Source of the DNA: Candidatus Omnitrophota bacterium
Lineage (GTDB): Bacteria; Omnitrophota; Gorgyraeia; Gygaellales; Profunditerraquicolaceae
Assembly: GCA_028712255.1 (NCBI GenBank)
Contig: JAQTQJ010000005.1
Location: 20,950-84,949 of the forward strand
DNA length: 64,000 nucleotides
Direction: 5' to 3'
Below are positions 22,338-63,391 of this stretch, one piece after another. Every line of letters begins with the position of its first letter. Within the stretch, counting starts at the first letter, position 1. The translations under genes were made by a program, and so were the position numbers. Under the pieces are notes generated by a model. That model had not been told where the DNA came from and searched no databases. It saw only the letters and a list, made by a program, of their open reading frames with translations.

Positions 22338-22394
22338 GCAGAACAAACATAAGCATAAGTAAGGACCGTCTGTTTTTATCTATTTGTAGATTAA

Positions 22395-23005
22395 TTAGTT
22401 CCAACGGAACGGTTCCGTTCTTTGAAAAGCTTGTTAGAAATATCTTCTTTCTCCGTCTATTGTCTTAGGAGGGAGGGTATATGGCAAGACAAGAGAGAAT
22501 TTACTTTGAGAATGCTGTTTACCACATAACAATAAGAGGTAATAATAAACAAAATATCTTGAAGCAAGACGAGGATAAAAAAAGTTTTCTTGAGTCTTTA
22601 GTAAGATTCAAATCTCGTTTTGGATTTAAGCTCCACGCTTTCGTTTTAATGGATAACCACGTTCATCTTATTATTGGGACTAACAGTAAGATAAATATAT
22701 CAAAGATTATGCATGCCATAACGCTGTCTTACAGCGTTAAGTTTAGGAGAAAGTATCTTTATTCTGGATACGTTTGGCAGGGAAGGTTCAAAAGTAATGT
22801 CATTGATGGTGATAGATATATTATTGAATGTTTAAACTATATCCATAACAATCCCGTAAGGGCAGGCATGGTTACAAGGGTCGAAGATTACTTTTGGAGT
22901 AGTTATCAATTTTGCAATGGATTAGAAAATAAAATTAAAGATTATATTCAGATAGATTGGTTTAAGGATAATTAAAAAGGGGACAGTTCCTTTGGAACGT
23001 TATAT
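22395..23005 (+). mobile_element. RAYT unit: tnpA(REP)-like gene bracketed by short palindromes, 22403-22419 aacggaacggttccgtt and 22979-22999 ggggacagttcctttggaacg.
   Basis: The hairpins share the GGGGAC(A/G)GTTC core with the dispersed hairpin family found elsewhere in the window. Confidence 0.6.
22481..22975 (+). CDS. REP-associated tyrosine transposase (RAYT, IS200/IS605 TnpA-like, HUH family).
   Basis: Motifs NAVYHITIRGNN, FVLMDNHVHLII (HUH), YVWQGRF (catalytic Tyr region) and NYIHNNPV. RBS ggagggagggtatATG. Flanked on both sides by GGAAC/GTTCC hairpins. Confidence 0.85.
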   Translation: MARQERIYFENAVYHITIRGNNKQNILKQDEDKKSFLESLVRFKSRFGFKLHAFVLMDNHVHLIIGTNSKINISKIMHAITLSYSVKFRRKYLYSGYVWQGRFKSNVIDGDRYIIECLNYIHNNPVRAGMVTRVEDYFWSSYQFCNGLENKIKDYIQIDWFKDN

Positions 23006-23786
23006 ATACCAAAAAGTTAGAAGGAAACGGTGCTGTGTAATAGATTATGCAAAAAATCTTCTTCAACAAGCTGAGATTTCTAGAGCAGGCAATTTAACAT
23101 TTATATTACATAGCGAAGCTAACAATGTGGCTTTTGATGGGATTTCTAGTATAGTTGATGACGCTAGAAAGAAAGGGATAAAAATCAATATTGTTAGCAT
23201 CGGATCACCGTCTCCATTTAGGACTATTGATTACCTTAAATTTTTAAAGCAGAATAAAGACATTGTAAGGTATGAAAATTTCGTTAATACAGCTGATCCT
23301 ATTGCTTGGTTGAGTCTGTCATTTTTGAATCCAGATACGCATTATATTCTTGGTTTAGATTTTATAGGAGCGCATGGGAGTTATTTTTCAGACTCAGGTG
23401 TAAGGCAAACCGCACTTTCAATGGCTACAGGAGTAAATATTCCTATTGGTTACTCTAATTTTTCTACTGGTTCTTTTTCTGATCCTTATTTTTCTGGTAC
23501 TTTTAGCGTGCGAGAGACAGTTATTTATCCTTCTCCAGATGTAAGAATTACCCAAACAAATATTACATCTAATTATGGTTCAAATTACCAGATTTTTTCG
23601 AATTCAAGTATTCCGTCTACTCAATTTGTTGCACCGCAACCATTTAATTCTTCATCAAATTATCAGGTGCCAGATTTTAGTTCTTGGAATGGTAGTAGTT
23701 TTAAACCTCTCCCAAGTATTGATTTTTCTCCGCCTAGTATTAGCATGCCCTCGAGTCCTATTCAAAGACCGGGTAATGGACCTTAA
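22992..23786 (+). CDS. Hypothetical protein with a Ser/Pro/Asn-rich C-terminal half. Start uncertain; TTG at 22992 per the ORF track.
   Basis: 264-aa ORF directly after the RAYT gene. No recognisable domain. Low-complexity S/P tail. Confidence 0.35.
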   Translation: MERYIYQKVRRKRCCVIDYAKNLLQQAEISRAGNLTFILHSEANNVAFDGISSIVDDARKKGIKINIVSIGSPSPFRTIDYLKFLKQNKDIVRYENFVNTADPIAWLSLSFLNPDTHYILGLDFIGAHGSYFSDSGVRQTALSMATGVNIPIGYSNFSTGSFSDPYFSGTFSVRETVIYPSPDVRITQTNITSNYGSNYQIFSNSSIPSTQFVAPQPFNSSSNYQVPDFSSWNGSSFKPLPSIDFSPPSISMPSSPIQRPGNGP

Positions 23787-33554: not shown

Positions 33555-34787
33555 GTGAAAAAATATTATTTTCTCGTCTTTGCGCTAATTTTTACGGTTA
33601 TCACCAGTATTTCCTGCGCCCCTTCTCCCAAGGTTTTTATTAAACAACTCAAAAACCAGCATTATCAACTTATCGTTAACGGTCGCCCGTATGTTGTCAA
33701 AGGGGTTTGTTATAACCCAATCCCGATAGGCCAGAATCATGAATATGATTGGTGGAGTGATCCGAATAAGCCCTGGATTGTTGACGGGAAACTTATGAAG
33801 GATATGGGGGTTAATACTATTCGTCTTTATCAAGCGCATGATAATCCTGAGGAGGTAAAACAAGTAATTCGAGACCTGTATAATTTGTATGGAATCCGTA
33901 CTCTTTTAGGTGATTGGTTGGGCTTCTGGGAGTATCCCTGCCCTTTTTATGGTGACAAAAAATTTCAGGATAAGGTAAAGGCCCAGGTATTGGAGATGGT
34001 TAATCTCTATAAAGATGAACCCGGAATTTTAGGCTGGATTTTGGGAAATGAGAATAATTATTCCTGCCTTGGACATGTAAATCCCTGGTCAAGCCCAGAG
34101 GTTGATCAAGAACCTGATCCACAGAAACAAAAATTGATGCGTGCAAAAATTTATTATTCTTTTGTAAATGATTTATCTAAGGAAATACATAAGGTTGACC
34201 TAAAGCATCCTGTAGGATTGGGTAATGGCGAATTAGTAGGTTTAGATTCTGCCAATAAATTTTGTCAGGATGTTGATTTTGTAGCCTGTATAATTTACCG
34301 TGGTAAAACCTTCGGCAACCTTTTTAATTCCCTCAAAGCAACATTTGATAAGCCGATGCTGTTAGCAGAATTTGGCGCGGATTGTTATGATGCTTATCTT
34401 AAGAAGGAAGATCAAAATATGCAGGCGTTTTTCTTGCAATCACAGTGGGAGCAGATTTACAAAAACTTAGCCAATAAAAAAGAAGGCGTAGGTAATTGTA
34501 TAGGCGGAACAATTTTTGAATGGGTGGATGAATGGTGGAAATATGCTTCTGATAATCCGCAAGGATGGAAAGTTCATAATACCGAGAGCGGTTGGTCTAA
34601 TGGAAGCTATTATTTTGATATCCGCGCACAAAATAATATGAATATGAATGAAGAATGGTTTGGTATTGTTGCATTAGGAGAGCAGTTGGAAAACGGTTTA
34701 AATAAGCGCATACCGCGTAAGGCTTATTATGTAATTAGGGAGTTTTGGAAGAATCCGGTAGTTAAAAAAACGCGTAAGAAGAAATAA
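33555..34787 (+). CDS. Clan GH-A glycoside hydrolase paralog. Start tentatively GTG 33555, because the ORF 5' part lies in a repeat element.
   Basis: NTIRLYQ, ILGNENNY, LLAEFGADCY, FEWVDEWWKY. Lipoprotein-like N-terminus ...ITSISCAP. Confidence 0.6.
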   Translation: MKKYYFLVFALIFTVITSISCAPSPKVFIKQLKNQHYQLIVNGRPYVVKGVCYNPIPIGQNHEYDWWSDPNKPWIVDGKLMKDMGVNTIRLYQAHDNPEEVKQVIRDLYNLYGIRTLLGDWLGFWEYPCPFYGDKKFQDKVKAQVLEMVNLYKDEPGILGWILGNENNYSCLGHVNPWSSPEVDQEPDPQKQKLMRAKIYYSFVNDLSKEIHKVDLKHPVGLGNGELVGLDSANKFCQDVDFVACIIYRGKTFGNLFNSLKATFDKPMLLAEFGADCYDAYLKKEDQNMQAFFLQSQWEQIYKNLANKKEGVGNCIGGTIFEWVDEWWKYASDNPQGWKVHNTESGWSNGSYYFDIRAQNNMNMNEEWFGIVALGEQLENGLNKRIPRKAYYVIREFWKNPVVKKTRKKK

Positions 34788-34791
34788 AACA

Positions 34792-34838
34792 AAGGGGACG
34801 GTTCTCTTAAAAAAGAGAACCGTCCCCTTTATTTTTAA
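34792..34838 (+). terminator. Terminator / REP-like hairpin aggggacggttctc-ttaaaaaa-gagaaccgtcccct + TTATTTTT.
   Basis: 14-bp perfect stem followed by a T-tract. Confidence 0.7.
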
Positions 34839-36436: not shown

Positions 36437-36495
36437 AGGGACCGTTTCTATTTTTTTTAAAAAAAATAGAAACGGTCCCTTTCCTTTTTTTGTTT
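36437..36495 (+). terminator. Terminator / REP-like hairpin gggaccgtttcta...tagaaacggtccc + TTTCCTTTTTTT. An inverted half-site tagaaccgccccc lies at 36510-36523.
   Basis: 13-bp stem with an AT loop, followed by a T-tract. Confidence 0.65.
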
Positions 36496-42583: not shown

Positions 42584-42663
42584 AATCTAGGGGACGGTTC
42601 TATTTTTCTGCCGTCTAGTTGAGTAGGAAAATAGAATTGCCCCCCTTGTTTTTCAATATCCCC

Positions 42664-53201: not shown

Positions 53202-53933
53202 TTGGAGTTTAGGTGCATGAAAAATAAAATTGTTTTCTGGATCAAGAAACAGATTAAGGATTCTGGGGCCAAGGGTATTGTGATGGGGCTTTCCGGAGGG
53301 ATAGATTCTGCCGTAGTGGCTGCTTTGTGTAAAGAGGCAGTAGGTAAGAATAATATGCTGGTCCTATTTATGCCTTGTAATAGTAATATACAGGATCTAA
53401 AGGATGCTCGATTAGTTGCCAGGAAGTTTAATCTTAAATCAAAGCTGGTAGACCTTTGCGGCGTATATAATGATTTCTTAAGAGTTCTGCCTCAGGCAGG
53501 AGGCTTAGCCAGAGGGAATCTTAAGCCCCGCCTGCGTATGAGCACGCTTTATTATTTTGCTAATAAGCTAAATTACTTAGTATGCGGAACAGGAAATAAA
53601 TCTGAACTTATGGTTGGGTATTTCACCAAATATGGCGACGGCGGAGTGGATATTTTACCGATTGCGGATTTATTCAAGCGCCAGGTGCGTCAACTTGCGC
53701 AGGAGTTGAAGATACCGCAAAATATTATTACCAAGCCGCCTACTGCCGGGCTTTGGCAGGGGCAGACTGATGAAGGAGAGATGGGGATAACTTATAATGA
53801 ACTGGATGATATCTTAGATAGGTTTTGTAATAATCGAAAACAGATTGTTGGTAGCAGTAAAATTAACAAGGTAAAAAGAATGTACAAAAATTCAGAGCAT
53901 AAACGAAAAGGTGCGGATATTTGCCGCATTTAG
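53202..53933 (+). CDS. nadE: NH3-dependent NAD+ synthetase.
   Basis: PP-loop GLSGGIDSAVVAAL. YGDGG motif. Confidence 0.85.
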   Translation: MEFRCMKNKIVFWIKKQIKDSGAKGIVMGLSGGIDSAVVAALCKEAVGKNNMLVLFMPCNSNIQDLKDARLVARKFNLKSKLVDLCGVYNDFLRVLPQAGGLARGNLKPRLRMSTLYYFANKLNYLVCGTGNKSELMVGYFTKYGDGGVDILPIADLFKRQVRQLAQELKIPQNIITKPPTAGLWQGQTDEGEMGITYNELDDILDRFCNNRKQIVGSSKINKVKRMYKNSEHKRKGADICRI

Positions 53934-53947
53934 CTGGAGGAGCCAGA

Positions 53948-54433
53948 ATGGATGAGATCTTAGAGATTTTAGAAAAAGATGGCCGGGCAAGTATAGAAGA
54001 TATTGCCAAGATGACCTGCAGGAAGCCTGAGGACGTTAAAAAAGCGATTAAGAAATACGAAAAAGAGGGAGCAATTTTAAAATATAAGGCAGTAATTAAC
54101 AAGGATTTGGTTAGAGATAATGAATCTGAGGTTAGGGCTTTAATTGAAGTGAATATCGTTCCGCAGAAGGATCTGGGTTTTGAGAAGATTGCCGAGCGCA
54201 TCTATTCGTTTCCTGAGGTCACTAGCTGTTATTTAATCAGCGGCACATATGATTTACTGGTGGTTGTAGAAGGTAAGAATTTGCATACGGTTTCCAATTT
54301 TGTGGCAGAGAAGCTTTCCTGTTTAGAAAATGTGCGCGGCACAGCGACACATTTTTTATTAAAGAAATACAAGGAAGACGGAGTAATCCTGAAGCAGAAG
54401 TCGGAGAATAAGAGGATAGCGATATCCTATTAA
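53948..54433 (+). CDS. Lrp/AsnC family transcriptional regulator.
   Basis: N-terminal HTH (ILEILEKDGRASIEDIAKMT) plus a RAM domain. Confidence 0.75.
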   Translation: MDEILEILEKDGRASIEDIAKMTCRKPEDVKKAIKKYEKEGAILKYKAVINKDLVRDNESEVRALIEVNIVPQKDLGFEKIAERIYSFPEVTSCYLISGTYDLLVVVEGKNLHTVSNFVAEKLSCLENVRGTATHFLLKKYKEDGVILKQKSENKRIAISY

Positions 54434-54435
54434 AC

Positions 54436-54500
54436 AAGCTGTCAGCTGTAAGCGGTAAGTTTTAAGCTTACAGCTTATAACTTAAAGCTTATGGCTTAGT
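54436..54500 (+). repeat. Family III palindromic element (GTAAGCGG.AAGTTTTAAGCTTACAGCTTATAACTTAAA core).
   Basis: Related copies at 60886-60952 and 62910-62976. Nested inverted repeats ctgtaagc/gcttacag. Confidence 0.65.
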
Positions 54501-54518
54501 TTTTAGGGCCTATAAAAA

Positions 54519-55688
54519 ATGAAAGATCTTATTTCAAAAAAAGTTCAAGTTATGCAGCCATCCGGAATTCGGGCGTTCTTTGATTTAGTGCTTGGGATGA
54601 AGGATGTTATATCTTTGGGCGTAGGTGAGCCGGATTTTGTTACTCCTTGGCAGATTCGTGAAGCGGGAGTTTATTCTCTGGAGCAGGGGTTTACCAGTTA
54701 TACCTCAAATAAGGGGTTGTATAAACTGCGTTTGGGGATCAGCCGTTTTTTAAAAAATAAATATGGTTTAGATTATTGCCCGGATGAAGAAATATTAATT
54801 ACGGTAGGAGTTAGTGAAGGTTTGGATTTGCTCATGCGGGCGATAATTAACCCCGGTGATAAAATACTGGTTCCACAGCCAAGTTATGTTTCATATGGGC
54901 CGATTACAGAGCTTGCAGGGGGTACTCCGATTTATATCGATACTTCCAAAGATGGTTTTAAAATTACCCCTAAACTTTTGGAAAAACATATTGATAAGAA
55001 AACCAAAGGAATTGTTTTGAATTATCCCACTAATCCTACTGGAGTTTCTTATCGGCGTAAGGAATTAGAAGAGATAAATAAAGTTTTATTGAAGCATAAA
55101 ATACTTTGTATCAGCGACGAGGTTTATGGCGATTTAACCTACGATTTTGAACATGTTGCTTTTTCGACTTTGTCTGGAGCAAAGAAAAATACGGTTTATT
55201 TTAACGGATTTTCCAAATCCTATGCGATGACCGGCTGGCGGGTGGGTTTTGCTTGCGGCCCGAAAGAGATTATCGCGGCGATGACCAAGATTCATCAGTA
55301 TACGATTATGTGCGTGCCAATTACCAGCCAAATGGCAGCGGCAGAAGCTTTGATTAGCGGCGCAAGATCAGTTGAGCAGATGAAACGCGAATATAATCGC
55401 CGGAGAGAGCTTATGGTATTTGAGTTAAATTCTTTAGGATTAAAATGTTCTCGGCCGCAAGGGGCTTTCTATGTTTTTCCTTGTATTAAAAGTACAGGAT
55501 TAAGTTCAATTGAATTTTCGCGCAAGCTGCTGGAAGAAGAAAAGGTGGCGGTTGTTCCAGGCACGGCTTTTGGTACAAGCGCAGAAGGTTATATTAGAAT
55601 CTCTTATGCTTCTAGTATGGATAATTTAAAAGAAGCTTTAGTTCGCGTGAGGAGATTCTTGGATAAAATAAAACTTAAACCTAGGTAG
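54519..55688 (+). CDS. Class I/II PLP-dependent aminotransferase (aspartate aminotransferase-like).
   Basis: PLP-lysine motif FNGFSKSYAMTGWRVGF. Confidence 0.85.
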   Translation: MKDLISKKVQVMQPSGIRAFFDLVLGMKDVISLGVGEPDFVTPWQIREAGVYSLEQGFTSYTSNKGLYKLRLGISRFLKNKYGLDYCPDEEILITVGVSEGLDLLMRAIINPGDKILVPQPSYVSYGPITELAGGTPIYIDTSKDGFKITPKLLEKHIDKKTKGIVLNYPTNPTGVSYRRKELEEINKVLLKHKILCISDEVYGDLTYDFEHVAFSTLSGAKKNTVYFNGFSKSYAMTGWRVGFACGPKEIIAAMTKIHQYTIMCVPITSQMAAAEALISGARSVEQMKREYNRRRELMVFELNSLGLKCSRPQGAFYVFPCIKSTGLSSIEFSRKLLEEEKVAVVPGTAFGTSAEGYIRISYASSMDNLKEALVRVRRFLDKIKLKPR

Positions 55689-55692
55689 TAAA

Positions 55693-56190
55693 ATGTTCAT
55701 CTATGAAGATATCTTACGTGAATTTCAAAAACATAAAATTCAATATATCGTTATCGGCGGTATTGCTGTTAATTTGCATGGGGCCTTAAGAAGTACTGCT
55801 GATTTGGATATAATGCTTGAAATGAGCGAGGATAATCTTAAGAATTGTTTAATTATTCTGAAAAGAAACAATTACCGCAGCAAACAACCTATTGATTGGA
55901 TTCAGATAGCTGATAAAAAAACTAGAGAATATTTAATACGAAAGAAGAATTTAAAAGCGGTGAATTTCTATAAAAATAGTAGTTTTGAGGAAGTCGATAT
56001 AATAATAGAGGCGCCGTTTACTTTTGGAGAAGCAAGAAATGATATTATTTGGGTTAGGAGCGGGAGCATAAGAATACCATTGTTATCAATTGATGGTTTG
56101 ATTAAAATGAAAAAAAAAGCGGGACGTATTGTTGATAAGCTTGATATAGACGCATTAAAGCGGATAAAAAGATTAAGGGTGAACGCATGA
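55693..56190 (+). CDS. Nucleotidyltransferase-fold protein, possibly the toxin/antitoxin-type minimal NTase.
   Basis: YIVIGGIAVNLHGALRSTADLDIM resembles the GS...D.D NTase motif. Confidence 0.45.
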   Translation: MFIYEDILREFQKHKIQYIVIGGIAVNLHGALRSTADLDIMLEMSEDNLKNCLIILKRNNYRSKQPIDWIQIADKKTREYLIRKKNLKAVNFYKNSSFEEVDIIIEAPFTFGEARNDIIWVRSGSIRIPLLSIDGLIKMKKKAGRIVDKLDIDALKRIKRLRVNA

Positions 56191-56345
56191 TTTTTAAATG
56201 GGAGAGTGAAGATGAACGTATTCTCAGGTTCATAAGTATTCCTGTAAAAAAGAAGCTAGAGTGGCTTTATGAAATGAATAAGTTTTTAAATAATTTTTCT
56301 TCGGTAAAAATTAGAAAAATTAGGCAGAAGCTAAGGGAATCTTAA
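56187..56345 (+). CDS. Small ORF of 52 aa that overlaps the stop of the NTase gene (ATGA). Possible partner protein.
   Basis: Hand-translated as MIFKWESEDERILRFISIPVKKKLEWLYEMNKFLNNFSSVKIRKIRQKLRES. Below the ORF-track size cut-off. Confidence 0.3.
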   Translation: MIFKWESEDERILRFISIPVKKKLEWLYEMNKFLNNFSSVKIRKIRQKLRES

Positions 56346-56360
56346 ATATTAGGAGAATAG

Positions 56361-57083
56361 ATGGTGGTGAAAAAGAAGGAAAATTATGAAATATACGTAA
56401 AACAGATCGAGGCTATTTCAAAAGTGGCGAATTTGCTTACCTCGGGAATGTATTTGGAGGAAATTTTACGTTTAGTGGTGCAGGTTACCGCTGAAATTAT
56501 GAATTCTAAAATTTCTTCTTTAATGCTGCTTGACCCGGAGAAAAAAGAGCTGGTGGTTAAAGCTACCCAATCAATATCCGAGGCATATAATAAGAAGCCG
56601 AATATCCGTTTAGGCCAGGGGATAGCCGGCGCGGTGGCACAGGAGAACAAGCCGATGTGTATCTTGGATATTAAGACCGATGCGCGCTACCTGAACCAGG
56701 ATATTGCTAGAAAAGAGGGTCTTTGTTCTTTAGCCTGCGTTCCGCTGGCAGTCAAGGGAAGAGTTATTGGAGTGCTTAATTGTTATACTTCTAAAAAGCA
56801 TAAATTTTCCAAGCATGAATTGGATCTTCTGACGGCTTTGGCTAATCAGGCAGCCATTGCTATTGAAAACGCAGAGCTTGATTTACGCGCGCGCTCCGCA
56901 GAGGAGGCTCTTACCATCCGTAAATTAGTCGAACGGGCAAAGGATATTCTGTCTCAGGAAGCTAATATTTTGCCTTCAGAGGCTTATCGGCTGATTCAAA
57001 AGCAAAGCATGGATATGCGTAAATCCATGCGTGAAGTGGCAGAAGCCATAATTCTAGCTAAAGATATTAGAGGTAAGAGGTAG
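56361..57083 (+). CDS. GAF-ANTAR regulator (RNA-binding antitermination regulator with a GAF sensor domain).
   Basis: C-terminal ANTAR signature IRKLVERAKDILSQEANILPSEAYRLIQKQSMDMRKSMREVAEAII. N-terminal GAF-like domain. Confidence 0.75.
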   Translation: MVVKKKENYEIYVKQIEAISKVANLLTSGMYLEEILRLVVQVTAEIMNSKISSLMLLDPEKKELVVKATQSISEAYNKKPNIRLGQGIAGAVAQENKPMCILDIKTDARYLNQDIARKEGLCSLACVPLAVKGRVIGVLNCYTSKKHKFSKHELDLLTALANQAAIAIENAELDLRARSAEEALTIRKLVERAKDILSQEANILPSEAYRLIQKQSMDMRKSMREVAEAIILAKDIRGKR

Positions 57084-57114
57084 TTATAGGAGAGGTTGAG
57101 CTGGCTTACAATTC

Positions 57115-57762
57115 ATGGAATTTTTCCCAAAGTTAATCGATGTATTACTTCATTTTAATACCTACCTTAGTGTTTTAATCCAGCAGTGCGGTTTGTGGAC
57201 ATATCTTATACTTTTTGGGGTTATTTTTGCGGAGACCGGATTTGTGGTAACGCCGTTTCTGCCCGGGGATTCGCTTCTTTTTGTGTTAGGCGCTTTTTCC
57301 GCCCAAGGAACATTTAATCCTTTTGTTTTGTCCGGAATTCTCATGTTTGCGGCGATTTTAGGCGATAGTGTCAATTATGCTATCGGGAAATATTTAGGAA
57401 ATCGGCTGATTTCCGCTAGACACATCCCTTTTTTTAAGAAAGAACATTTGGACCGGACCCACCATTTCTATAAAAAGTATGGCGGCAAAACAATTATTTT
57501 AGCCAGGTTTATACCTATAGTAAGGATGTTTGCTCCGTTTATCGCAGGTATCGTGCGTATGGATTATGCCAAATTCTTTATCTATAATGTAATAGGGGGC
57601 ATATTATGGGTAGCAATCTTTGTGTTTGGAGGTTTTTATTTCGGAAATATTCCTATTGTGAAAGAAAATTTTTCTGTAGTTACGCTACTAATTATTAGTA
57701 TCTCGATAATACCGGTTATAGTTGAATTTATTAAAGCGAGAAGAAAAAAGAATTTACCTTGA
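57115..57762 (+). CDS. DedA/SNARE-associated family membrane protein.
   Basis: PGDSLLF and ARFIPIVRMFAPFIAGIV motifs. Confidence 0.8.
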   Translation: MEFFPKLIDVLLHFNTYLSVLIQQCGLWTYLILFGVIFAETGFVVTPFLPGDSLLFVLGAFSAQGTFNPFVLSGILMFAAILGDSVNYAIGKYLGNRLISARHIPFFKKEHLDRTHHFYKKYGGKTIILARFIPIVRMFAPFIAGIVRMDYAKFFIYNVIGGILWVAIFVFGGFYFGNIPIVKENFSVVTLLIISISIIPVIVEFIKARRKKNLP

Positions 57763-57997
57763 CAGTAGTAAAAGGTATGGTATGCTTTAATTAGATTACA
57801 GCGTTGTAGTAAAAGACACAGAAGTCTTCTAGGCGGTTAGGTTTGCTTAGGAGGCTTTTTGTTGGTCAGGACTAAGGCGTCCTTACCCGATAAAAGGGTG
57901 AGGACGTTTTTTATTGTACGGGAGATTAGTATATCTAGTAGGGACTGTCCCACGACAAGTTAAGTATAATTTGCTGCTAACGAAAAAAGGAATAGCA

Positions 57998-58519
57998 ATG
58001 AGTTTTGAGGAGCTGTATCATAAATTATCGCCAACAATTAAGCGGATTGCCTATAAGTTAAACGGACGCTACCGTTCCTTTAACCATGATGATCTGTACC
58101 AAGAGGCTTCAATCCACCTTTGGAGTAATTTCTTAAAAGGGAAACTTAACGATAAAACTGATAGCTATATTTTACAGGGGTGTTATTTTCACTTGAGGAA
58201 CCATATTCGAAAAGTAAATGAGTATTCCAATATTATTAGTATTGATACTCACCTGAGCACGAATGAGAAATCAACCATAGAGGATATTTTGGGTAAATTT
58301 TGGTCTTGTCCTGATTGCCGGGAAGATTTACACAATAAGTTTCTGGCGCAAAATATCCAAAATAACGGTTTTAGCCCAAGAGAGAAAAAGCTGCTTGCTT
58401 ATTTTAGCCAGGGCTTAACTACCAGGGATATAGGTAATCGTATGGGGATATCTCATGTTAGCGTAGTTAAGATGATGCAAAAAGTTAGAGCTAAGGCAAA
58501 AAAACATTTAGATAGATAA
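57998..58519 (+). CDS. Sigma-70 family (ECF-like) sigma factor. Start moved to ATG 57998, which has an aagga RBS.
   Basis: Region-2-like DLYQEASIHLW. Region-4 HTH LTTRDIGNRMGISHVSVVKMMQKVRAKAKK. Confidence 0.6.
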   Translation: MSFEELYHKLSPTIKRIAYKLNGRYRSFNHDDLYQEASIHLWSNFLKGKLNDKTDSYILQGCYFHLRNHIRKVNEYSNIISIDTHLSTNEKSTIEDILGKFWSCPDCREDLHNKFLAQNIQNNGFSPREKKLLAYFSQGLTTRDIGNRMGISHVSVVKMMQKVRAKAKKHLDR

Positions 58520-58588
58520 TATCCTTCGTCTCTAGATAAAAACTTATTGTAGACTCAGGATAAATTTTGCTTGGCAAAATTTAATTTG

Positions 58589-58618
58589 GTTACCAGATTT
58601 AGTTATTCTTTACTTGTA
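58589..58618 (+). promoter_or_regulatory. Promoter-like motif GTTACC-N16-TACTTGTA, upstream of the OM-protein/amt/glnB unit.
   Basis: The same bipartite motif with identical spacing recurs at 61394-61423 and 63403-63432. Confidence 0.5.
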
Positions 58619-58656
58619 GTAATGTAAAACACATTGAAGTGTAAGATTTAAACAAC

Positions 58657-58686
58657 GGCGTTCTATGAAAATAGAGCGCCTTTTTT
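58657..58686 (+). terminator. Leader intrinsic-terminator-like hairpin (ggcgttctat gaaa atagagcgcc + TTTTTT) between the promoter motif and the OM-protein gene.
   Basis: 10-bp stem followed by a T6 tract. Further hairpin/T-tract structures at about 58697-58716 and 58770-58800. Confidence 0.45.
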
Positions 58687-58841
58687 GTTTTAACCAGACG
58701 CAGGCGTCTTTTGCCCAACAAGGGCACACCCGCGCAATTCCTTATAAGCGCGGGGTGTTACTGAGAGGGGTTTAGAAAGGCGCTTTTTGTTTTTAAAAGC
58801 AATTTAAGCGCAACACGGGCATAATAATAAAAAGGAGAAAA

Positions 58842-59642
58842 ATGCGAAAATTATCAATGATTTTGTTTTTTCTGTTTTCTGTCCTCTGTTTTCTGTTCTC
58901 TGTATGTTATGCAACACCTTCAACGCTTATTTGGGCTCCTTCAACCGATATTCAACCTTATGGTTTGATCCATTTAACCGTAGATAACTACACGCCGGTT
59001 AAGAGCAGGGATCATAATGATAATCAGCTTTATGTTCAACAAGTTTATGGACCAACTTTTAGTTTGTTATCCAATAAGCCGGAAGATAACTTTTTAGGTA
59101 AATTTTGGTCGCCTTTAGGTAAAATAATGGCAGAGACTGGTTTTGATTACAAAAAGGGTTTTGGCTCCATACTGGACAAGTGGCCGGTATATTTTCATTT
59201 TAAATTCGGCGTACCTGAAAGCGCCTATTTTAACTATATGCCTGCATTTGCAATCGGTGTATATGATATGGGTTATAAGCATAATTTTACCAATAACAAT
59301 GTTTGGTACTTGAGGGCAGCAAAAACTGCTTCTATAGGTAAGTTTAATTTAGGTAGGTTCTCTGTCGGTTATTTTAACGGTAATGGCAGGACTTTGCGGG
59401 ATAAAAATGGAGAGCGTGATAATTCCGGGCCGATGATTGCTTGGGAACGCACGATTTCAGAGATAAGTGACAGGCTTTGGTTATGTGTGGATTATCAGGG
59501 AACGCAGTCATCTTACGGCGCGCTTAATTACGGATTTGCCTGGAAGTTTACGAATAATATCGTAGCGATACTTGCATATGATGTTTATAATAATCCGAAT
59601 TCAAAAAATACCGTAACGTTTCAGTTAGATGTTGATTTTTAA
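58842..59642 (+). CDS. Putative outer-membrane/secreted protein encoded upstream of amt.
   Basis: Signal peptide MRKLSMILFFLFSVLCFLFSVCYA. Aromatic-rich beta-strand-like pattern. C-terminal DVDF. Confidence 0.4.
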   Translation: MRKLSMILFFLFSVLCFLFSVCYATPSTLIWAPSTDIQPYGLIHLTVDNYTPVKSRDHNDNQLYVQQVYGPTFSLLSNKPEDNFLGKFWSPLGKIMAETGFDYKKGFGSILDKWPVYFHFKFGVPESAYFNYMPAFAIGVYDMGYKHNFTNNNVWYLRAAKTASIGKFNLGRFSVGYFNGNGRTLRDKNGERDNSGPMIAWERTISEISDRLWLCVDYQGTQSSYGALNYGFAWKFTNNIVAILAYDVYNNPNSKNTVTFQLDVDF

Positions 59643-59657
59643 CATAGGAGGAGCCAA

Positions 59658-60884
59658 ATGAATTCAGGTGATACAGCATGGGTTTTAATTTCATCAGCCC
59701 TTGTTTTACTGATGACTCCCGGCCTTGCTTTTTTCTACGGAGGCATGGTGCGGCGCAAAAATGTTTTAAGTGTTTTGATGCAATGTTTTATTATCATGTG
59801 TGTTTTAAGCCTTCAGTGGGTTTTGGTTGGTTATAGCCTATCTTTTCATCCGGGAAATGGATTTTGGGGAGGTTTACAATGGATGGGTTTAAATGGAGTA
59901 GGTTTAGAGCCTTACGCGGACTACGCAGGGTCAATACCACATCAAGCGTTTATGGTCTTTCAAGGGATGTTTGCCATAATTACACCGGCTTTGATTATTG
60001 GCGCGTTTGCCGAAAGGATGAAATTTTCCGCGTTTTTGATTTTTACTTTGCTTTGGGCAACGTTTGTTTATGATCCTTTATGCCACTGGGTTTGGGGAAT
60101 GGGTGGTTGGTTAAGAAATTTAGGCGCTTTGGATTTTGCCGGAGGTACGGTTGTGCATATCAATGCCGGTATTGCAGCTTTGGTTACGGCAATCGTATTA
60201 GGTAAAAGAAGTAACCTGGATAAAAATGTTCCTACGCCGCATAACATGCCTTTTGTGGTTTTAGGCACAGTGCTTTTGTGGTTTGGTTGGTTTGGTTTTA
60301 ATGCCGGCAGTGCGTTAGCGGCAAACGGCTTAGCGGTAAATGCGTTTGTGGTAACTAATACCGCAGCAGCGGCTGCGGGTTTAGCTTGGGCTTTGATCGA
60401 ATGGATGCATAATGGAAAGCCTACCATTTTTGGTGTCTGTTCTGGTGCAGTCGCAGGCTTAGTCGCGATTACTCCTGCAGCAGGTTTTGTGGGTGTAATT
60501 GGAGCTATAGTTATTGGTTTATTGGTGAGTGTAGTTTGTTTTATTGCCGTGACTGTAATCAAGCCGCTTTTTGGTTATGATGATTCTTTGGATGCATTTG
60601 GCGTACACTGTGTAGGAGGAATCTGGGGGGCGTTAGCTACAGGATTATTTGCTTCTAAGCTGATTAATCCTGCTGGAGCCAATGGGTTATTTTTTGGTAA
60701 TCCTAAACAATTCCTGACACAGGCTTTAGCTGTAGGTGTAACCATTGTTTATACAGGAGTTGTAACCTTTATTATTTATAAATTAGTGGATATTTTTATT
60801 GGGGTTAGGGTTGATGAGAAGTCAGAAGCTATAGGTCTTGACCTTACCCAGCATCGTGAGAGGGCATATACGATACTTGAATGA
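59658..60884 (+). CDS. amt: Ammonium transporter, copy 1.
   Basis: DFAGGTVVHINAGIAALV Amt signature. 11 TM helices. Confidence 0.9.
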   Translation: MNSGDTAWVLISSALVLLMTPGLAFFYGGMVRRKNVLSVLMQCFIIMCVLSLQWVLVGYSLSFHPGNGFWGGLQWMGLNGVGLEPYADYAGSIPHQAFMVFQGMFAIITPALIIGAFAERMKFSAFLIFTLLWATFVYDPLCHWVWGMGGWLRNLGALDFAGGTVVHINAGIAALVTAIVLGKRSNLDKNVPTPHNMPFVVLGTVLLWFGWFGFNAGSALAANGLAVNAFVVTNTAAAAAGLAWALIEWMHNGKPTIFGVCSGAVAGLVAITPAAGFVGVIGAIVIGLLVSVVCFIAVTVIKPLFGYDDSLDAFGVHCVGGIWGALATGLFASKLINPAGANGLFFGNPKQFLTQALAVGVTIVYTGVVTFIIYKLVDIFIGVRVDEKSEAIGLDLTQHRERAYTILE

Positions 60885-60885
60885 A

Positions 60886-60952
60886 AGCTCTAAGCCATAA
60901 GCCGTAAGCGGCAAGTTTTAAGCTTACAGCTTATAACTTAAAACTTAGAGCT
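60886..60952 (+). repeat. Family III palindromic element between amt1 and glnB1. An exact second copy lies at 62910-62976.
   Basis: agctctaagccataagccgtaagcggcaagttttaagcttacagcttataacttaaaacttagagct. The outer agctctaag/cttagagct and inner gtaagc/gcttac arms are inverted repeats. Confidence 0.65.
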
Positions 60953-60974
60953 AGAGTTTACAAAGGAGGATAAT

Positions 60975-61316
60975 ATGAAACTAGTGATTGCTATAATTCA
61001 ACCGTATAAGCTAGAAGAAGTAAAGGAGGAGCTGTATAAGGTAGAAGTAAACCTGATTACCGTAAGCGAAGTTTTAGGCCATGGCCGCCAGAAAGGTATC
61101 ACTGAAGTCTACCGCGGTTCTAAAGAAACCGGGAATCTCCTGCGAAAAATCCGCCTTGAGATTGCCGTAAACGATAATTATCTTGAACCGACAATCAAGG
61201 CAATTGTTAAAGGCGCCAAAACCGGTGAAACCGGAGATGGAAAAATATTTGTCCTCGATCTTAAAGAATGCATCCGTATCCGCACTGAAGAACGCGGGGC
61301 AGTGGCGATAGGGTAG
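60975..61316 (+). CDS. glnB: P-II nitrogen regulatory protein, copy 1.
   Basis: GHGRQKG and TGETGDGKIFV P-II motifs. T-loop YRGS. Confidence 0.9.
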   Translation: MKLVIAIIQPYKLEEVKEELYKVEVNLITVSEVLGHGRQKGITEVYRGSKETGNLLRKIRLEIAVNDNYLEPTIKAIVKGAKTGETGDGKIFVLDLKECIRIRTEERGAVAIG

Positions 61317-61393
61317 GAATTAGAGATCCTTCGTCTGTAGATAAAAGCTTATTGTGGACTCAGGATAAATTTTGCTTCGCAAAATTTAATTTA

Positions 61394-61423
61394 AGTTACC
61401 AAAACAGGTAGTTGTTTACTTGT
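61394..61423 (+). promoter_or_regulatory. Promoter-like motif GTTACC-N16-TACTTGTA, upstream of amt copy 2.
   Basis: See 58589-58618. Confidence 0.5.
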
Positions 61424-61481
61424 ACTATTATAGATTAATATAAGCACACAGTAGTGTTTATATTGAAGAAGCGCAATGTAA

Positions 61482-61525
61482 GCGCCAATACGGTTTATAA
61501 AATAACCGTAAAGGCGCTTTTTTTT
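61482..61525 (+). terminator. Leader terminator-like nested hairpin (gcgcc...acggtt/aaccgt...ggcgc + T8) upstream of amt copy 2.
   Basis: GC stem followed by TTTTTTTT. Confidence 0.45.
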
Positions 61526-61681
61526 CGCCAGAAATCGTGGCGAATCCGCCATGTATTATGGCGGAATTTACTTACCCTATTTTTACGCAATTGGTTATCC
61601 AGTTGAGCAAATTAATCGAAACAGTTTCCAGCCCAATCGGGAAATGGGGTTTAAGAGAAGAAACTATTTATGGGAGGTGAG

Positions 61682-62908
61682 ATGATTAATCAAGCGGATA
61701 CGTTGTTTGTTCTGATGTCGGCGGCGTTTGTAATGCTGATGACTCCCGGCCTTGCTTTTTTCTACGGAGGCATGGTCAGGCGCAAGAATATTTTAAGCGT
61801 TTTAATGCAATGTTTTGTTGCTTTATGTCTGTTGTCTTTACAATGGATAATTTTTGGTTATAGCCTATCTTTTGCTCCAGGAAATGGGTTTTGGGGAGGC
61901 CTTAGTTGGTTTGGTTTAAACGGAGTGGGGGCAGCTCCTTATGCGGGTTATTCTGTGACTATTCCGCATCAGGCATTTATGGTTTTTCAGATGATGTTTG
62001 CTGTTATAACTCCAGCGCTTATTATTGGTGCTTTTGCCGAAAGGATGAAGTTTTCGGCTTTCTTAGTTTTCACCCTACTTTGGGCAACCTTTGTTTATGA
62101 TCCTTTGTGTCACTGGATTTGGGGAGTAGGAGGTTGGCTTAGAAACCTTGGCGTGCTTGATTTTGCCGGAGGTATTGTTGTGCATACTAGCGCCGGAATT
62201 GCAGCTTTAGTTTCTACTATTATCATTGGTAAAAGAAAGAACTTGGAGCATACACCGTCTCCACATAACCTCCCTTTTGTAGTTTTAGGAACTGCGCTTT
62301 TATGGTTTGGCTGGTATGGTTTTAATGCCGGCAGCGCTTTGGCGGTAAATGGAATTGCAGTAAGCGCTTTTATTGCTACTAATACTGCTGCAGCCGCAGC
62401 CGGTTTAAGCTGGGCGTTCTTGGAGTGGATACGTAATGGCAAACCTACGGTTTTTGGTATTGTAACCGGTTCGATTGCTGGGCTTGCCACTGTTACTCCT
62501 GCTTCGGGATTTGTAAGCCCGATTTCAGCAATTATTATCGGTATTGCTGCCAGTATAATTTGTTTTATCGCGGTTGCAGTAACTAAACCGCGGTTTGGTT
62601 ATGATGATTCTTTGGATGCCTTCGGCGTGCATGGCGTAGGAGGAATACTGGGTACGCTTTTAACCGGGGTATTGGCTTCTAAAGCAATAAATCCGGCAGG
62701 AGCGGACGGTTTATTATATGGTAATCCTAAGCAGTTACTTATACAATTATTGGCGGTTACGGTTGCAGTAAGCTATACTTTTATTGCTACTTTTATTATT
62801 TATAAGCTCGTAGATATTTTCTTTAGGATGCGTGTAAGTGAGAAAGATGAGCTGGTCGGTCTTGACCTTACCCAGCATCGTGAGAGGGCATATACGATAC
62901 TTGAATGA
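61682..62908 (+). CDS. amt: Ammonium transporter, copy 2. Start set at ATG 61682, which has a ggaggtgag RBS.
   Basis: About 80% identical to copy 1. DFAGGIVVHTSAGIAALV. Confidence 0.9.
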   Translation: MINQADTLFVLMSAAFVMLMTPGLAFFYGGMVRRKNILSVLMQCFVALCLLSLQWIIFGYSLSFAPGNGFWGGLSWFGLNGVGAAPYAGYSVTIPHQAFMVFQMMFAVITPALIIGAFAERMKFSAFLVFTLLWATFVYDPLCHWIWGVGGWLRNLGVLDFAGGIVVHTSAGIAALVSTIIIGKRKNLEHTPSPHNLPFVVLGTALLWFGWYGFNAGSALAVNGIAVSAFIATNTAAAAAGLSWAFLEWIRNGKPTVFGIVTGSIAGLATVTPASGFVSPISAIIIGIAASIICFIAVAVTKPRFGYDDSLDAFGVHGVGGILGTLLTGVLASKAINPAGADGLLYGNPKQLLIQLLAVTVAVSYTFIATFIIYKLVDIFFRMRVSEKDELVGLDLTQHRERAYTILE

Positions 62909-62998
62909 AAGCTCTAAGCCATAAGCCGTAAGCGGCAAGTTTTAAGCTTACAGCTTATAACTTAAAACTTAGAGCTAGAGTTTACAAAGGAGGATAAT

Positions 62999-63340
62999 AT
63001 GAAACTAGTGATTGCTATAATTCAACCGTATAAGCTAGAAGAAGTAAAGGAGGAGCTGTATAAGGTAGAAGTAAACCTGATTACCGTAAGCGAAGTTTTA
63101 GGCCATGGCCGCCAGAAAGGTATCACTGAAGTCTACCGCGGTTCTAAAGAAACCGGGAATCTCCTGCGAAAAATCCGCCTTGAGATTGCCGTAAACGATA
63201 ATTATCTTGAACCGACAATCAAGGCAATTGTTAAAGGCGCCAAAACCGGTGAAACCGGAGATGGAAAAATATTTGTCCTCGATCTTAAAGAATGCATCCG
63301 TATCCGCACTGAAGAACGCGGGGCAGTGGCGATAGGGTAG
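62999..63340 (+). CDS. glnB: P-II nitrogen regulatory protein, copy 2. Identical nucleotide sequence to copy 1.
   Basis: Exact duplicate of 60975-61316. Confidence 0.9.
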   Translation: MKLVIAIIQPYKLEEVKEELYKVEVNLITVSEVLGHGRQKGITEVYRGSKETGNLLRKIRLEIAVNDNYLEPTIKAIVKGAKTGETGDGKIFVLDLKECIRIRTEERGAVAIG

Positions 63341-63345
63341 GAAAA

Positions 63346-63391
63346 CCAGGTGACGGTTCTCTTTCTTAAGAGAACCGTCACCTGGTTTTTA
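63346..63391 (+). terminator. Rho-independent terminator / REP-like hairpin ccaggtgacggttctc-tttcttaa-gagaaccgtcacctgg + TTTTT.
   Basis: Perfect 16-bp stem followed by a T-tract. Member of the GGGGACGGTTC hairpin family. Confidence 0.7.

Follow-up and report, generated by a model that had tools for sequence, protein, structure and literature searches.

We analysed a 64-kb window (the whole stretch of 64,000 nt, GC content 39%) from contig JAQTQJ010000005.1 of a Candidatus Omnitrophota bacterium, focusing on a short repeated element that lies between genes of nitrogen metabolism. The ammonium transporter (Amt) of the host is 95% identical to proteins from Candidatus Omnitrophota metagenome-assembled genomes (MAGs), and its best 100 matches come from Omnitrophota or from unnamed metagenome bins. 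The element occupies three sites. Copy 1 (54436-54498) is located in the spacer between the gene of an AsnC/Lrp-family regulator (53921-54433, + strand; Pfam PF01037, 2.4e-17, and HTH_24) and that of a class I/II aminotransferase (54519-55688, + strand; Pfam PF00155, 8e-75). Copy 2 (60885-60954) starts directly 3' of the TGA stop codon (60882-60884) of the ammonium transporter gene amt-1 (59658-60884, + strand; Pfam PF00909, 1.9e-132) and precedes a PII (GlnB/GlnK) gene (60975-61316, + strand; Pfam PF00543, 2.4e-26). Copy 3 (62909-62978), which is identical to copy 2 at every base, lies between amt-2 (61670-62908, + strand; Pfam PF00909, 3e-129) and a second PII gene (62999-63340, + strand) with the same nucleotide sequence as the first one.

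All three copies fill stop-to-start spacers between open reading frames (ORFs) of the same strand, beginning 0-2 nt past the upstream stop codon and ending ~18-22 nt ahead of the next ATG. The spacers are short and no promoter or terminator was called inside them, so that co-transcription of the flanking genes is plausible. The 39-nt core GTAAGCGGYAAGTTTTAAGCTTACAGCTTATAACTTAAA occurs exactly three times in the window, on the + strand, with zero occurrences expected (100 shuffles); the copies are real and far beyond chance. The description given in the initial annotation, i.e. a repeated, hairpin-capable element between same-strand and probably co-transcribed genes, thus holds at these positions.

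Heptamer architecture of the element

Each copy consists of two degenerate heptamer arrays placed head-to-head, namely (TAAGCNN)4-5 followed by the complementary (NNGCTTA)5. Copy 1 has nine units, four in the left arm (54436-54463: AAGCTGT CAGCTGT AAGCGGT AAGTTTT) and five in the right arm (54464-54498: AAGCTTA CAGCTTA TAACTTA AAGCTTA TGGCTTA), after which the sequence continues with G TTTTT. Copy 2, and with it copy 3, has ten units, five in the left arm (60885-60919: AAGCTCT AAGCCAT AAGCCGT AAGCGGC AAGTTTT) and five in the right arm (60920-60954: AAGCTTA CAGCTTA TAACTTA AAACTTA GAGCTAG). In either half of every copy, Tandem Repeats Finder detects arrays with a period of 7 (AAGCTGT x4.7, AAGCTTA x4.0-4.7, TAAGCCA x2.7). 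A scan of the 64 kb for lag-7 autocorrelation returned the three sites, with values of 0.71-0.74, plus one coding repeat (58846-58917) and nothing more, and no periodic stretch was found in the window at lags 4, 5 and 8-13. The pattern (TAAGCNN)2TAAGC with at most two mismatches has 23 matches in the window against 0.29 expected, 22 of them inside the three elements, and the phased TAAGC units of the left halves belong to the + strand, those of the right halves to the - strand.

The initial annotation had called the element palindromic. The nested inverted repeats on which this was based are indeed present (copy 1: ctgtaagc/gcttacag; copies 2 and 3: agctctaag/cttagagct), as is the AAGCTT core, but they exist because two degenerate heptamer arrays stand head-to-head, and this primary feature had been missed. 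We also considered, and discarded, the idea that a unit complementary to itself trivially produces the palindrome: AAGCTTA has TAAGCTT as its reverse complement, which cannot be obtained by rotating AAGCTTA, and the left and right arms are therefore different, complementary arrays.

The coding stretch with lag-7 periodicity (58846-58917, + strand) consists of (TTTTCTG)n-like repeats, which give a repetitive, signal-peptide-like N-terminus MRKLSMILFFLFSVLCFLFSVCYA to a 266-aa ORF (58842-59642) without a Pfam match.

Two of the three copies belong to one duplicated block

Copies 2 and 3 are parts of a block of 486 nt that is present at 60834-61319 and 62858-63343 (both on the + strand) with 100% identity. 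Within the block lie the final 51 nt of amt, the array-bearing spacer and the complete PII gene. The block appears to be recent, because the remaining parts of amt-1 and amt-2 are only ~70% identical to each other and the PII paralogues of three related contigs (L001, L002 and L011, see below) are 82-87% identical at the DNA level, as against 100% in the window. We take it to be a gene conversion or duplication that would have brought the array to the second operon, or otherwise an assembly problem. The three stretches counted in the initial annotation all exist, but as sites they were overcounted: since copies 2 and 3 lie in a single duplication, there are only two independent sites, and the window contains two independent arrays of a single unit family. 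The two sites are 87% identical across ~61 nt, and their central 39 nt are alike but for one base.

A perfect repeat of 486 nt could in principle reflect the collapse of a metagenome assembly or a chimera. As an explanation of the element itself, an assembly artefact or chance similarity is practically negligible, given that zero chance matches are expected, that copy 1 lies in unique sequence, and that the family is present in many independent assemblies of different sources.

Orthologous spacers in related genomes

We compared the nitrogen gene cluster with its counterparts in five related contigs (L001, L002, L009, L010 and L011). In L001 (Amt 95% identical) the asnC-aminotransferase spacer has 37 nt and no array, the amt1-PII spacer has 180 nt and a different array, and the amt2-PII spacer has just 9 nt. 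In L002 (Amt 91%) the asnC-aminotransferase pair is outside the locus, and the amt1-PII and amt2-PII spacers (54 and 55 nt, respectively) have no array. L009 and L010 (Amt 90%) possess an asnC-aminotransferase spacer of 12 nt and an amt1-PII spacer of 96 nt, both without an array, and have no second such paralogue. In L011 (Amt 91%), finally, the asnC-aminotransferase pair is again outside the locus, the amt1-PII spacer has 32 nt and no array, and amt2 and PII overlap in the gene calls. No lag-7 array was found anywhere in L002, L009, L010 and L011 (16-21 kb each).

The amt1-PII spacer of L001 (11228-11407, 180 nt) contains head-to-head CTAAACN / NGTTTAG heptamers around a GC-rich hairpin CCTGCCTGCCGGTAGGCAGG, with a minimum free energy (MFE) of -54 kcal/mol and a z-score of -6.3; its final 18 nt ahead of the start codon, TAGAGTTTACAAAGGAGG, are common to this spacer and the window. 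Unrelated GC-rich hairpins are found in some other amt-PII spacers (L009, z -7.7; L011, z -5.0), and the amt-PII spacers of L002 are unstructured (z ~0). Because the orthologous spacers of the relatives lack the TAAGC array, the element is not a conserved part of these operons; judging from this comparison, the spacers are places where varied structured inserts come and go.

Distribution of TAAGC-type arrays

The initial annotation had named a motif count elsewhere as a test, and the motif turned out to be abundant in both genome and metagenome collections. A scan of the genome collection with the 21-mer centre AAGTTTTAAGCTTACAGCTTA as the query matched the Omnitrophota MAG JAPLLY01 at two sites (the loci L004 and L008 are the same site), the Omnitrophota MAG DAONDX01 at one site, which has a one-sided array only, and two Bacteroidota MAGs. 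The sites in JAPLLY01 are operon spacers, e.g. that between fabD and fabG, and are unrelated to the spacers in the window. A scan of the metagenome collection with the right-arm pattern AAGCTTACAGCTTAYARCTTA matched at least 120 stretches, on contigs whose GC content ranges from 0.30 to 0.68 among the matches listed, and the family therefore spans many lineages. The same pattern had one match in 2.9 million viral contigs, and we rejected an association with phages.

Among the matches listed, 84 of the 119 non-redundant arrays (~70%) are one-sided, i.e. have no inverted partner, while three or more inverted units lie upstream in 18 and two in 12. For 65 arrays confident reading frames are present on both sides, and 52 of these arrays lie between co-directional genes; in such spacers the NAGCTTA strand is sense in 30 and antisense in 22. 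Only 10 of the 120 arrays listed lie inside long stop-free frames, and many related arrays stop just short of a ribosome-binding site and a start codon.

L008 and L119, both from Omnitrophota, have orthologous fabD-fabG spacers, each of which contains a TAAGC-type array, with different numbers of units: five left and four right in L008, approximately one left and five right in L119. In L008 (3440-3480) fabD, ending in ...V N I E K K E D V F K L *, takes its TAA stop codon from the first heptamer unit, and in L119 fabD, ending in ...V N I E K A S D L S K S *, stops ahead of the array, from which it follows that the array remodelled the C-terminus of the upstream protein.

Related contigs may also possess several arrays of unlike sequence. 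An 8-kb stretch of a contig from the Bacteroidota MAG JBJOKO01 (L005) contains six heptamer arrays, which fill every spacer in a run of same-strand genes with a different unit, such as GTAAGCN/NGCTTAC (150 nt, MFE ~-84), TTTTGAT, GTCACCA, GGCTGTT and CCCTCTA. Another stretch of 8 kb (L006) contains five heptamer arrays of differing units. The presence of many unrelated units in one contig argues for a process that works in steps of 7 nt independently of sequence.

Polarity of the inverted pairs

Wherever TAAGC-type arrays form an inverted pair, the order is 5'-(TAAGCNN)n(NNGCTTA)n-3', which reads identically on either strand. This was found in 30 of 30 pairs, including the metagenome arrays among the matches listed (17 of 17 under a strict definition and 29 of 29 under a relaxed one, plus the single viral match). 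The reverse order, with the GCTTA-type array preceding the TAAGC-type array, was not seen among the matches listed, apart from one degenerate candidate in L042. The seed AAGCTTACAGCTTAYARCTTA may favour the observed junction, yet most seeds lie in one-sided arrays and none of these has inverted units after it. In a second family, (GGTAnTA)n ... (TAnTACC)n, the G-rich arm is 5' in five of five pairs. We rejected an A-rich 5' arm as the general rule of polarity: the A/T skew is reversed in a GTTTAC-type pair of L077. The energetics of the hairpin cannot explain the polarity, because the reverse order would fold equally well.

The invariant polarity (30/30 and 5/5), together with the recurrence of the centre AAGTTTTAAGCTTACAGCTTA in Omnitrophota and Bacteroidota, leads to the conjecture that head-to-head heptamer arrays are a distinct element class, present across phyla, rather than chance juxtapositions of slippage products. 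We regard this conjecture as unlikely. If it were true, it would call for a directional mechanism that generates or maintains the arrays, for which an oriented heptad-binding protein or a templated addition of units at DNA 3' ends, in break repair or replication restart, would be candidates, and it would offer a first mechanistic handle on the abundance of 7-nt repeats in bacteria.

Folding of the arms and the case for an RNA function

The check by RNA folding that the initial annotation had suggested revealed a hairpin potential above that of dinucleotide shuffles (z -3.4 to -5.9). In copy 1 the + strand folds with -30.5 kcal/mol (z -3.4) and the - strand with -23.4; in copy 2 the values are -26.3 kcal/mol (z -3.7) for the + strand and -33.2 kcal/mol (z -5.9) for the - strand, which forms 25 consecutive pairs if G-U pairs are counted. 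Folding predictions give a single long, imperfect hairpin whose loop has 3 or 12 nt.

Such folds fit the role proposed in the initial annotation, that of an RNase processing or stability determinant within operons. The element would then be a functional intercistronic stem-loop, serving as a substrate of RNase III or as a barrier to 3'-5' exonucleases, and would thereby uncouple the stability or translation of the upstream and downstream genes. The duplex range of RNase III substrates includes ~25-30 bp, which is the length predicted here, and the element occupies precisely the interval from stop codon to ribosome-binding site. The strong, if unrelated, hairpins in the amt-PII spacers of L009 and L011 also favour a structure at this position, as did the sense strand being the better folder in five of the six arrays examined first.

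The remaining observations speak against it. As a stricter null model we kept the heptamer units and shuffled their order within each arm. The energies observed were then -25.8 for copy 1 (-27.8 ± 3.3 after shuffling), -26.3 for copy 2 (-24.3 ± 3.4), -32.9 for the minus strand of copy 2 (-29.8 ± 3.6) and -20.0 for L008 (-21.8 ± 2.7); the 150-nt Bacteroidota array folds marginally better than its unit shuffles, 10-21 of 200 of which reach its energy. Energies within the unit-shuffled distribution imply that the constant TAAGC/GCTTA cores, rather than any matching of the variable positions, account for the stability; the hairpin would be a by-product of the head-to-head order. In copies 2 and 3, moreover, the mRNA-sense strand is the poorer folder (-26.3 vs -32.9) on account of C-A mismatches. 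The G-U asymmetry in favour of the sense strand, which we had considered as a sign of selection at the RNA level, was rejected as such when it vanished in a larger sample: in 27 palindromic arrays with an assignable gene direction, among the matches listed, the better-folding strand is sense in 14 (13 without a duplicate) and antisense in 10, with three ties. Besides, the element is missing from the same spacers of relatives with 90-95% identical Amt, the spacers of L002 are unstructured, the amt2-PII spacer of L001 has only 9 nt, and the one-sided arrays that make up ~70% of the family among the matches listed are unable to form a hairpin. The proposed function in RNase processing or mRNA stability has no positive support, and we consider it rather unlikely.

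Several known types of RNA or DNA signal were also examined. The whole window has no Rfam match at the gathering thresholds, and in permissive mode it gives only generic hairpin matches of the miRNA-precursor type (16-24 bits vs thresholds of 34-100). An intrinsic (Rho-independent) terminator, which has a GC-rich stem with a U-tract right after it, was rejected; the terminator scan made no call at the elements, the stems are AU-rich, and a run of T residues follows copy 1 (T5) but not copies 2 and 3. In the targets of ANTAR antitermination proteins, two short stem-loops with hexanucleotide loops lie side by side and overlap a terminator. The element does not qualify as such a target, for its predicted fold is a single long hairpin and the relatives keep the GAF-ANTAR gene without the array. 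An operator of the TnrA/GlnR type has the form TGTNA-N7-TNACA and was rejected by inspection, as the spacing is wrong (TGTAA-N16-TTACA here).

The RAYT gene and the question of mobility

The window encodes a REP-associated tyrosine transposase (RAYT; 22481-22975, + strand; NCBIfam NF047646, 95 bits with a cutoff of 80; Pfam Y1_Tnp, 7.8e-18), which raises the possibility that the element is a miniature mobile element, similar to repetitive extragenic palindromic (REP) sequences and REPINs or to miniature inverted-repeat transposable elements (MITEs), whose hairpin is copied by a transposase such as this one. The 39-nt core common to two non-homologous spacers, the dispersed copies in other genomes, and the fixed inverted polarity, which resembles that of a REPIN or of inward-facing terminal repeats, would agree with this possibility. 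In their setting, too, the copies resemble REP/REPIN sequences, which are short imperfect palindromes between co-transcribed genes, classically proposed to stabilise mRNA. REP/REPIN families number tens to hundreds of near-uniform copies per genome; the genome-collection scan with AAGTTTTAAGCTTACAGCTTA gave two sites in its best-matching MAG.

Other details speak against it. REP/REPIN sequences, as described in PMC3733652, are palindromes of 20-40 nt that carry GTAG or CGTC as a conserved 5' tag. The arms of the window copies have neither tag in a fixed position: there is no GTAG, a single CGTA (not CGTC) lies inside copy 2, GTAAGC is an internal unit only, and the ends are ragged. The flanks of the RAYT gene (22340-22480 and 22976-23040), where the cognate palindromes would be expected, contain GGAACGGTTCC at 22406 and GGGACAGTTCC at 22980 and no TAAGC units. 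As regards MITEs, the arms are unequal (4+5 vs 5+5 units), identity decays outward from the centre, there is no flanking direct repeat that would represent a target-site duplication, and 84 of the 119 family members among the matches listed are one-sided. The family is also nearly absent from viral contigs. On this evidence a mobile element is very improbable.

The palindromes next to the RAYT gene belong to another family. The motif GGRACNGTTCY, of which GGAACGGTTCC and GGGACAGTTCC are instances, occurs nine times in the window against 0.21 expected; together with the RAYT gene it looks like the true REP/RAYT system of this genome, with a better fit to REP sequences than the TAAGC copies have, and it is probably one of the other palindromic families in the initial annotation. 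Sites of this family are found at 34786-34835, 36437-36480 and 42590-42644, the first of them as a perfect or near-perfect palindrome of 22-23 nt downstream of a gene. A near-identical palindrome at 63342-63389 is a one-base variant, with GGTGACGGTTCT instead of GGGGACGGTTCT, and is not counted among the nine.

Relationship to known heptanucleotide repeats

We compared the TAAGC-type arrays with the repeat classes described in the literature. In the survey of Mrazek et al. (2007), as reported in PMC4679880 and PMC4692102, heptanucleotides are the most abundant class of long simple sequence repeats (SSRs) in most of the genomes analysed, and slippage of the polymerase across a 7-nt contact was proposed as their cause; three tandem heptanucleotides are attributed to Calothrix PCC 7601 in the account given in PMC4692102. 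With these long SSRs and short tandemly repeated repetitive (STRR) sequences our arrays share a 7-nt unit repeated head-to-tail, an intergenic location, length and sequence that vary between close relatives, and the lack of an established function (PMC4679880, PMC4692102). Several unit families per genome are described for the class; the window has two independent arrays of one family, related contigs have five or six arrays of different units in 8 kb, and L009-L011 have none. The differences are the unit (TAAGCNN), the phylum, a greater degeneracy and the pairing head-to-head. The cyanobacterial STRR sensu stricto have one of three heptamer units of Calothrix or Nostoc and a heterocystous host; an assignment to them was rejected on the basis of the unit TAAGCNN and the Omnitrophota host.

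Other heptamer families resemble our arrays in different respects. The TAACTGA repeats of Beggiatoaceae, Cyanobacteria and Bacteroidetes, for which horizontal spread is suspected with no known mechanism (MacGregor 2015, PMC4679880), comprise 2-6 or more heptamers located a few nt upstream of start codons within operons and are patchy across phyla. They are almost all direct (169 sets, one indirect), were picked as unstructured sequences and are biased in orientation towards the downstream gene (PMC4679880), whereas the TAAGC-type arrays show no clear orientation bias (30 vs 22 among the matches listed) and often form inverted pairs. The GGGAATC/GGGGAYT repeats of Xanthomonas and Nostoc are likewise intergenic or operon-internal (e.g. 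pecE-pecF), some are inverted, with the potential to form a stem-loop or cruciform, and they vary extensively at the same site between close relatives (PMC4692102); their units are G-rich and quadruplex-capable, while the TAAGC units are AT-rich, with an AGCT core and no potential to form a quadruplex. In Geobacter metallireducens, tandem heptanucleotides (e.g. five MTYCTGA units) occur at many intergenic sites, mostly as opposite-strand pairs; they have other units, their separation is variable, and some have an insertion sequence at a fixed distance (PMC2700814). These sites, with repeats of 7-9 nt, were described as 'predicted global regulator binding sites', i.e. their function is only predicted (PMC2700814). 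Our literature search found nothing on such repeats in Omnitrophota and no relevant paper with the TAAGCNN unit sequence.

To our knowledge, the parS/omega operators of plasmid pSM19035 are the only heptad array with a demonstrated mechanism. They consist of gapless 7-bp units in mixed direct and inverted orientation, to which ribbon-helix-helix dimers bind cooperatively, one per heptad, and at least four contiguous heptads, direct or inverted, form a working array (PMC9499535). By analogy, the TAAGC arrays might be binding sites of a cooperative DNA-binding protein, or of a single-strand RNA-binding protein of the cold-shock or S1-domain type, such as was proposed for the TAACTGA repeats, that regulates the adjacent nitrogen genes. 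An oriented binding site would give units in strict 7-nt register with a fixed polarity, converging as they do here, and nitrogen-metabolism genes flank both sites in the window. Like the TAACTGA repeats (PMC4679880), many arrays stop shortly before a ribosome-binding site and start codon, and heptamer repeats of Nostoc alter the expression of recF and recO (bioRxiv 10.1101/2022.06.06.494920). On the other side, the pSM19035 array is a plasmid centromere and promoter operator with another unit and a dedicated protein encoded alongside, so that the comparison is a likeness only; near our arrays no ribbon-helix-helix gene or promoter context was seen in general domain scans, which included no dedicated screen for this fold. 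The units are degenerate and no candidate binder was identified, the many unrelated units of a single contig would require as many binders, other members of the family adjoin unrelated genes (e.g. fabD-fabG), and the orthologous nitrogen operons lack the element although the AsnC and GAF-ANTAR regulators are kept. A protein-binding array is accordingly quite improbable.

The window copies have four or five contiguous 7-nt units per arm, where the class calls for at least 3-4, are intergenic and vary at orthologous sites, as do the long SSRs, and they very probably belong to the intergenic heptanucleotide-repeat class. The element is an addition to a known, functionally unexplained class, with a new phylum and a new unit, and not a new palindromic RNA element. 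With it the class now includes Omnitrophota and a further unit, TAAGCNN, which environmental metagenomes commonly contain. It documents the turnover of arrays at orthologous operon spacers, and the invariant polarity of inverted arrays is possibly a useful clue. Among long simple repeats, heptanucleotides are the most over-represented in many bacterial genomes; they have been known since the work on Calothrix that is cited in PMC4692102, with no established origin or function. For annotation, the lesson is that it would be wrong to interpret elements of this kind as REP elements or conserved regulatory RNAs, and that a perfect repeat containing arrays can reflect gene conversion instead of independent insertion.

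Possible origin and persistence of the arrays

A mechanism in which the arrays are near-neutral by-products can be outlined as follows. Replication slippage would lengthen or shorten the arrays one unit at a time, and recombination or gene conversion may copy them between sites; the one visible event of this kind would be the conversion of the 486-nt amt-PII block. The arrays would persist because spacers between a stop codon and a ribosome-binding site tolerate them. In the asnC-aminotransferase and amt-PII transcripts the arms would pair into an imperfect, AU-rich hairpin of 25-30 bp, passively and without selection, and any influence on how fast the mRNA decays or how well the downstream gene is translated would probably be modest and incidental. 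We judge this account, taken as a whole, rather probable, with less assurance than the assignment to the heptanucleotide class.

Four observations weigh against it. First, copies 1 and 2 have the same ordered series of atypical units (AAGCGGY AAGTTTT AAGCTTA CAGCTTA TAACTTA; 39 nt, one difference), so that slippage alone is insufficient and a copying step between non-homologous spacers is needed. Second, the strict polarity is predicted neither by random slippage nor by the stability of the hairpin. Third, the recurrence of the unit family across phyla and its persistence in the fabD-fabG spacer could mean selection or a dedicated mechanism. Fourth, the hairpins in the corresponding spacers of L009 and L011 indicate that a hairpin at the amt-PII position might be favoured.

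Other features of the window

A GAF-ANTAR regulator gene (56361-57083, + strand) adjoins the aminotransferase gene and is conserved in the relatives. A 67-nt sequence is found ahead of both amt operons (58521-58587 and 61326-61392) with 94% identity, and the leader of the first amt operon contains a terminator-like hairpin with a T-run (GGCGTTCTATGAAAATAGAGCGCC TTTTTTG, 58657-58680). The combination of this gene, the shared leader and the terminator-like hairpin suggests a possible ANTAR-controlled antitermination of the amt-PII operons.

At the other end of the window, an ORF of 7245 aa (59-21796, + strand) has near its 3' end a tandem repeat with a period of 483 nt (19062-20377, 2.7 copies, 74% matches). 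Three GGRACNGTTCT motifs lie within this ORF, at 9008, 9939 and 10310.

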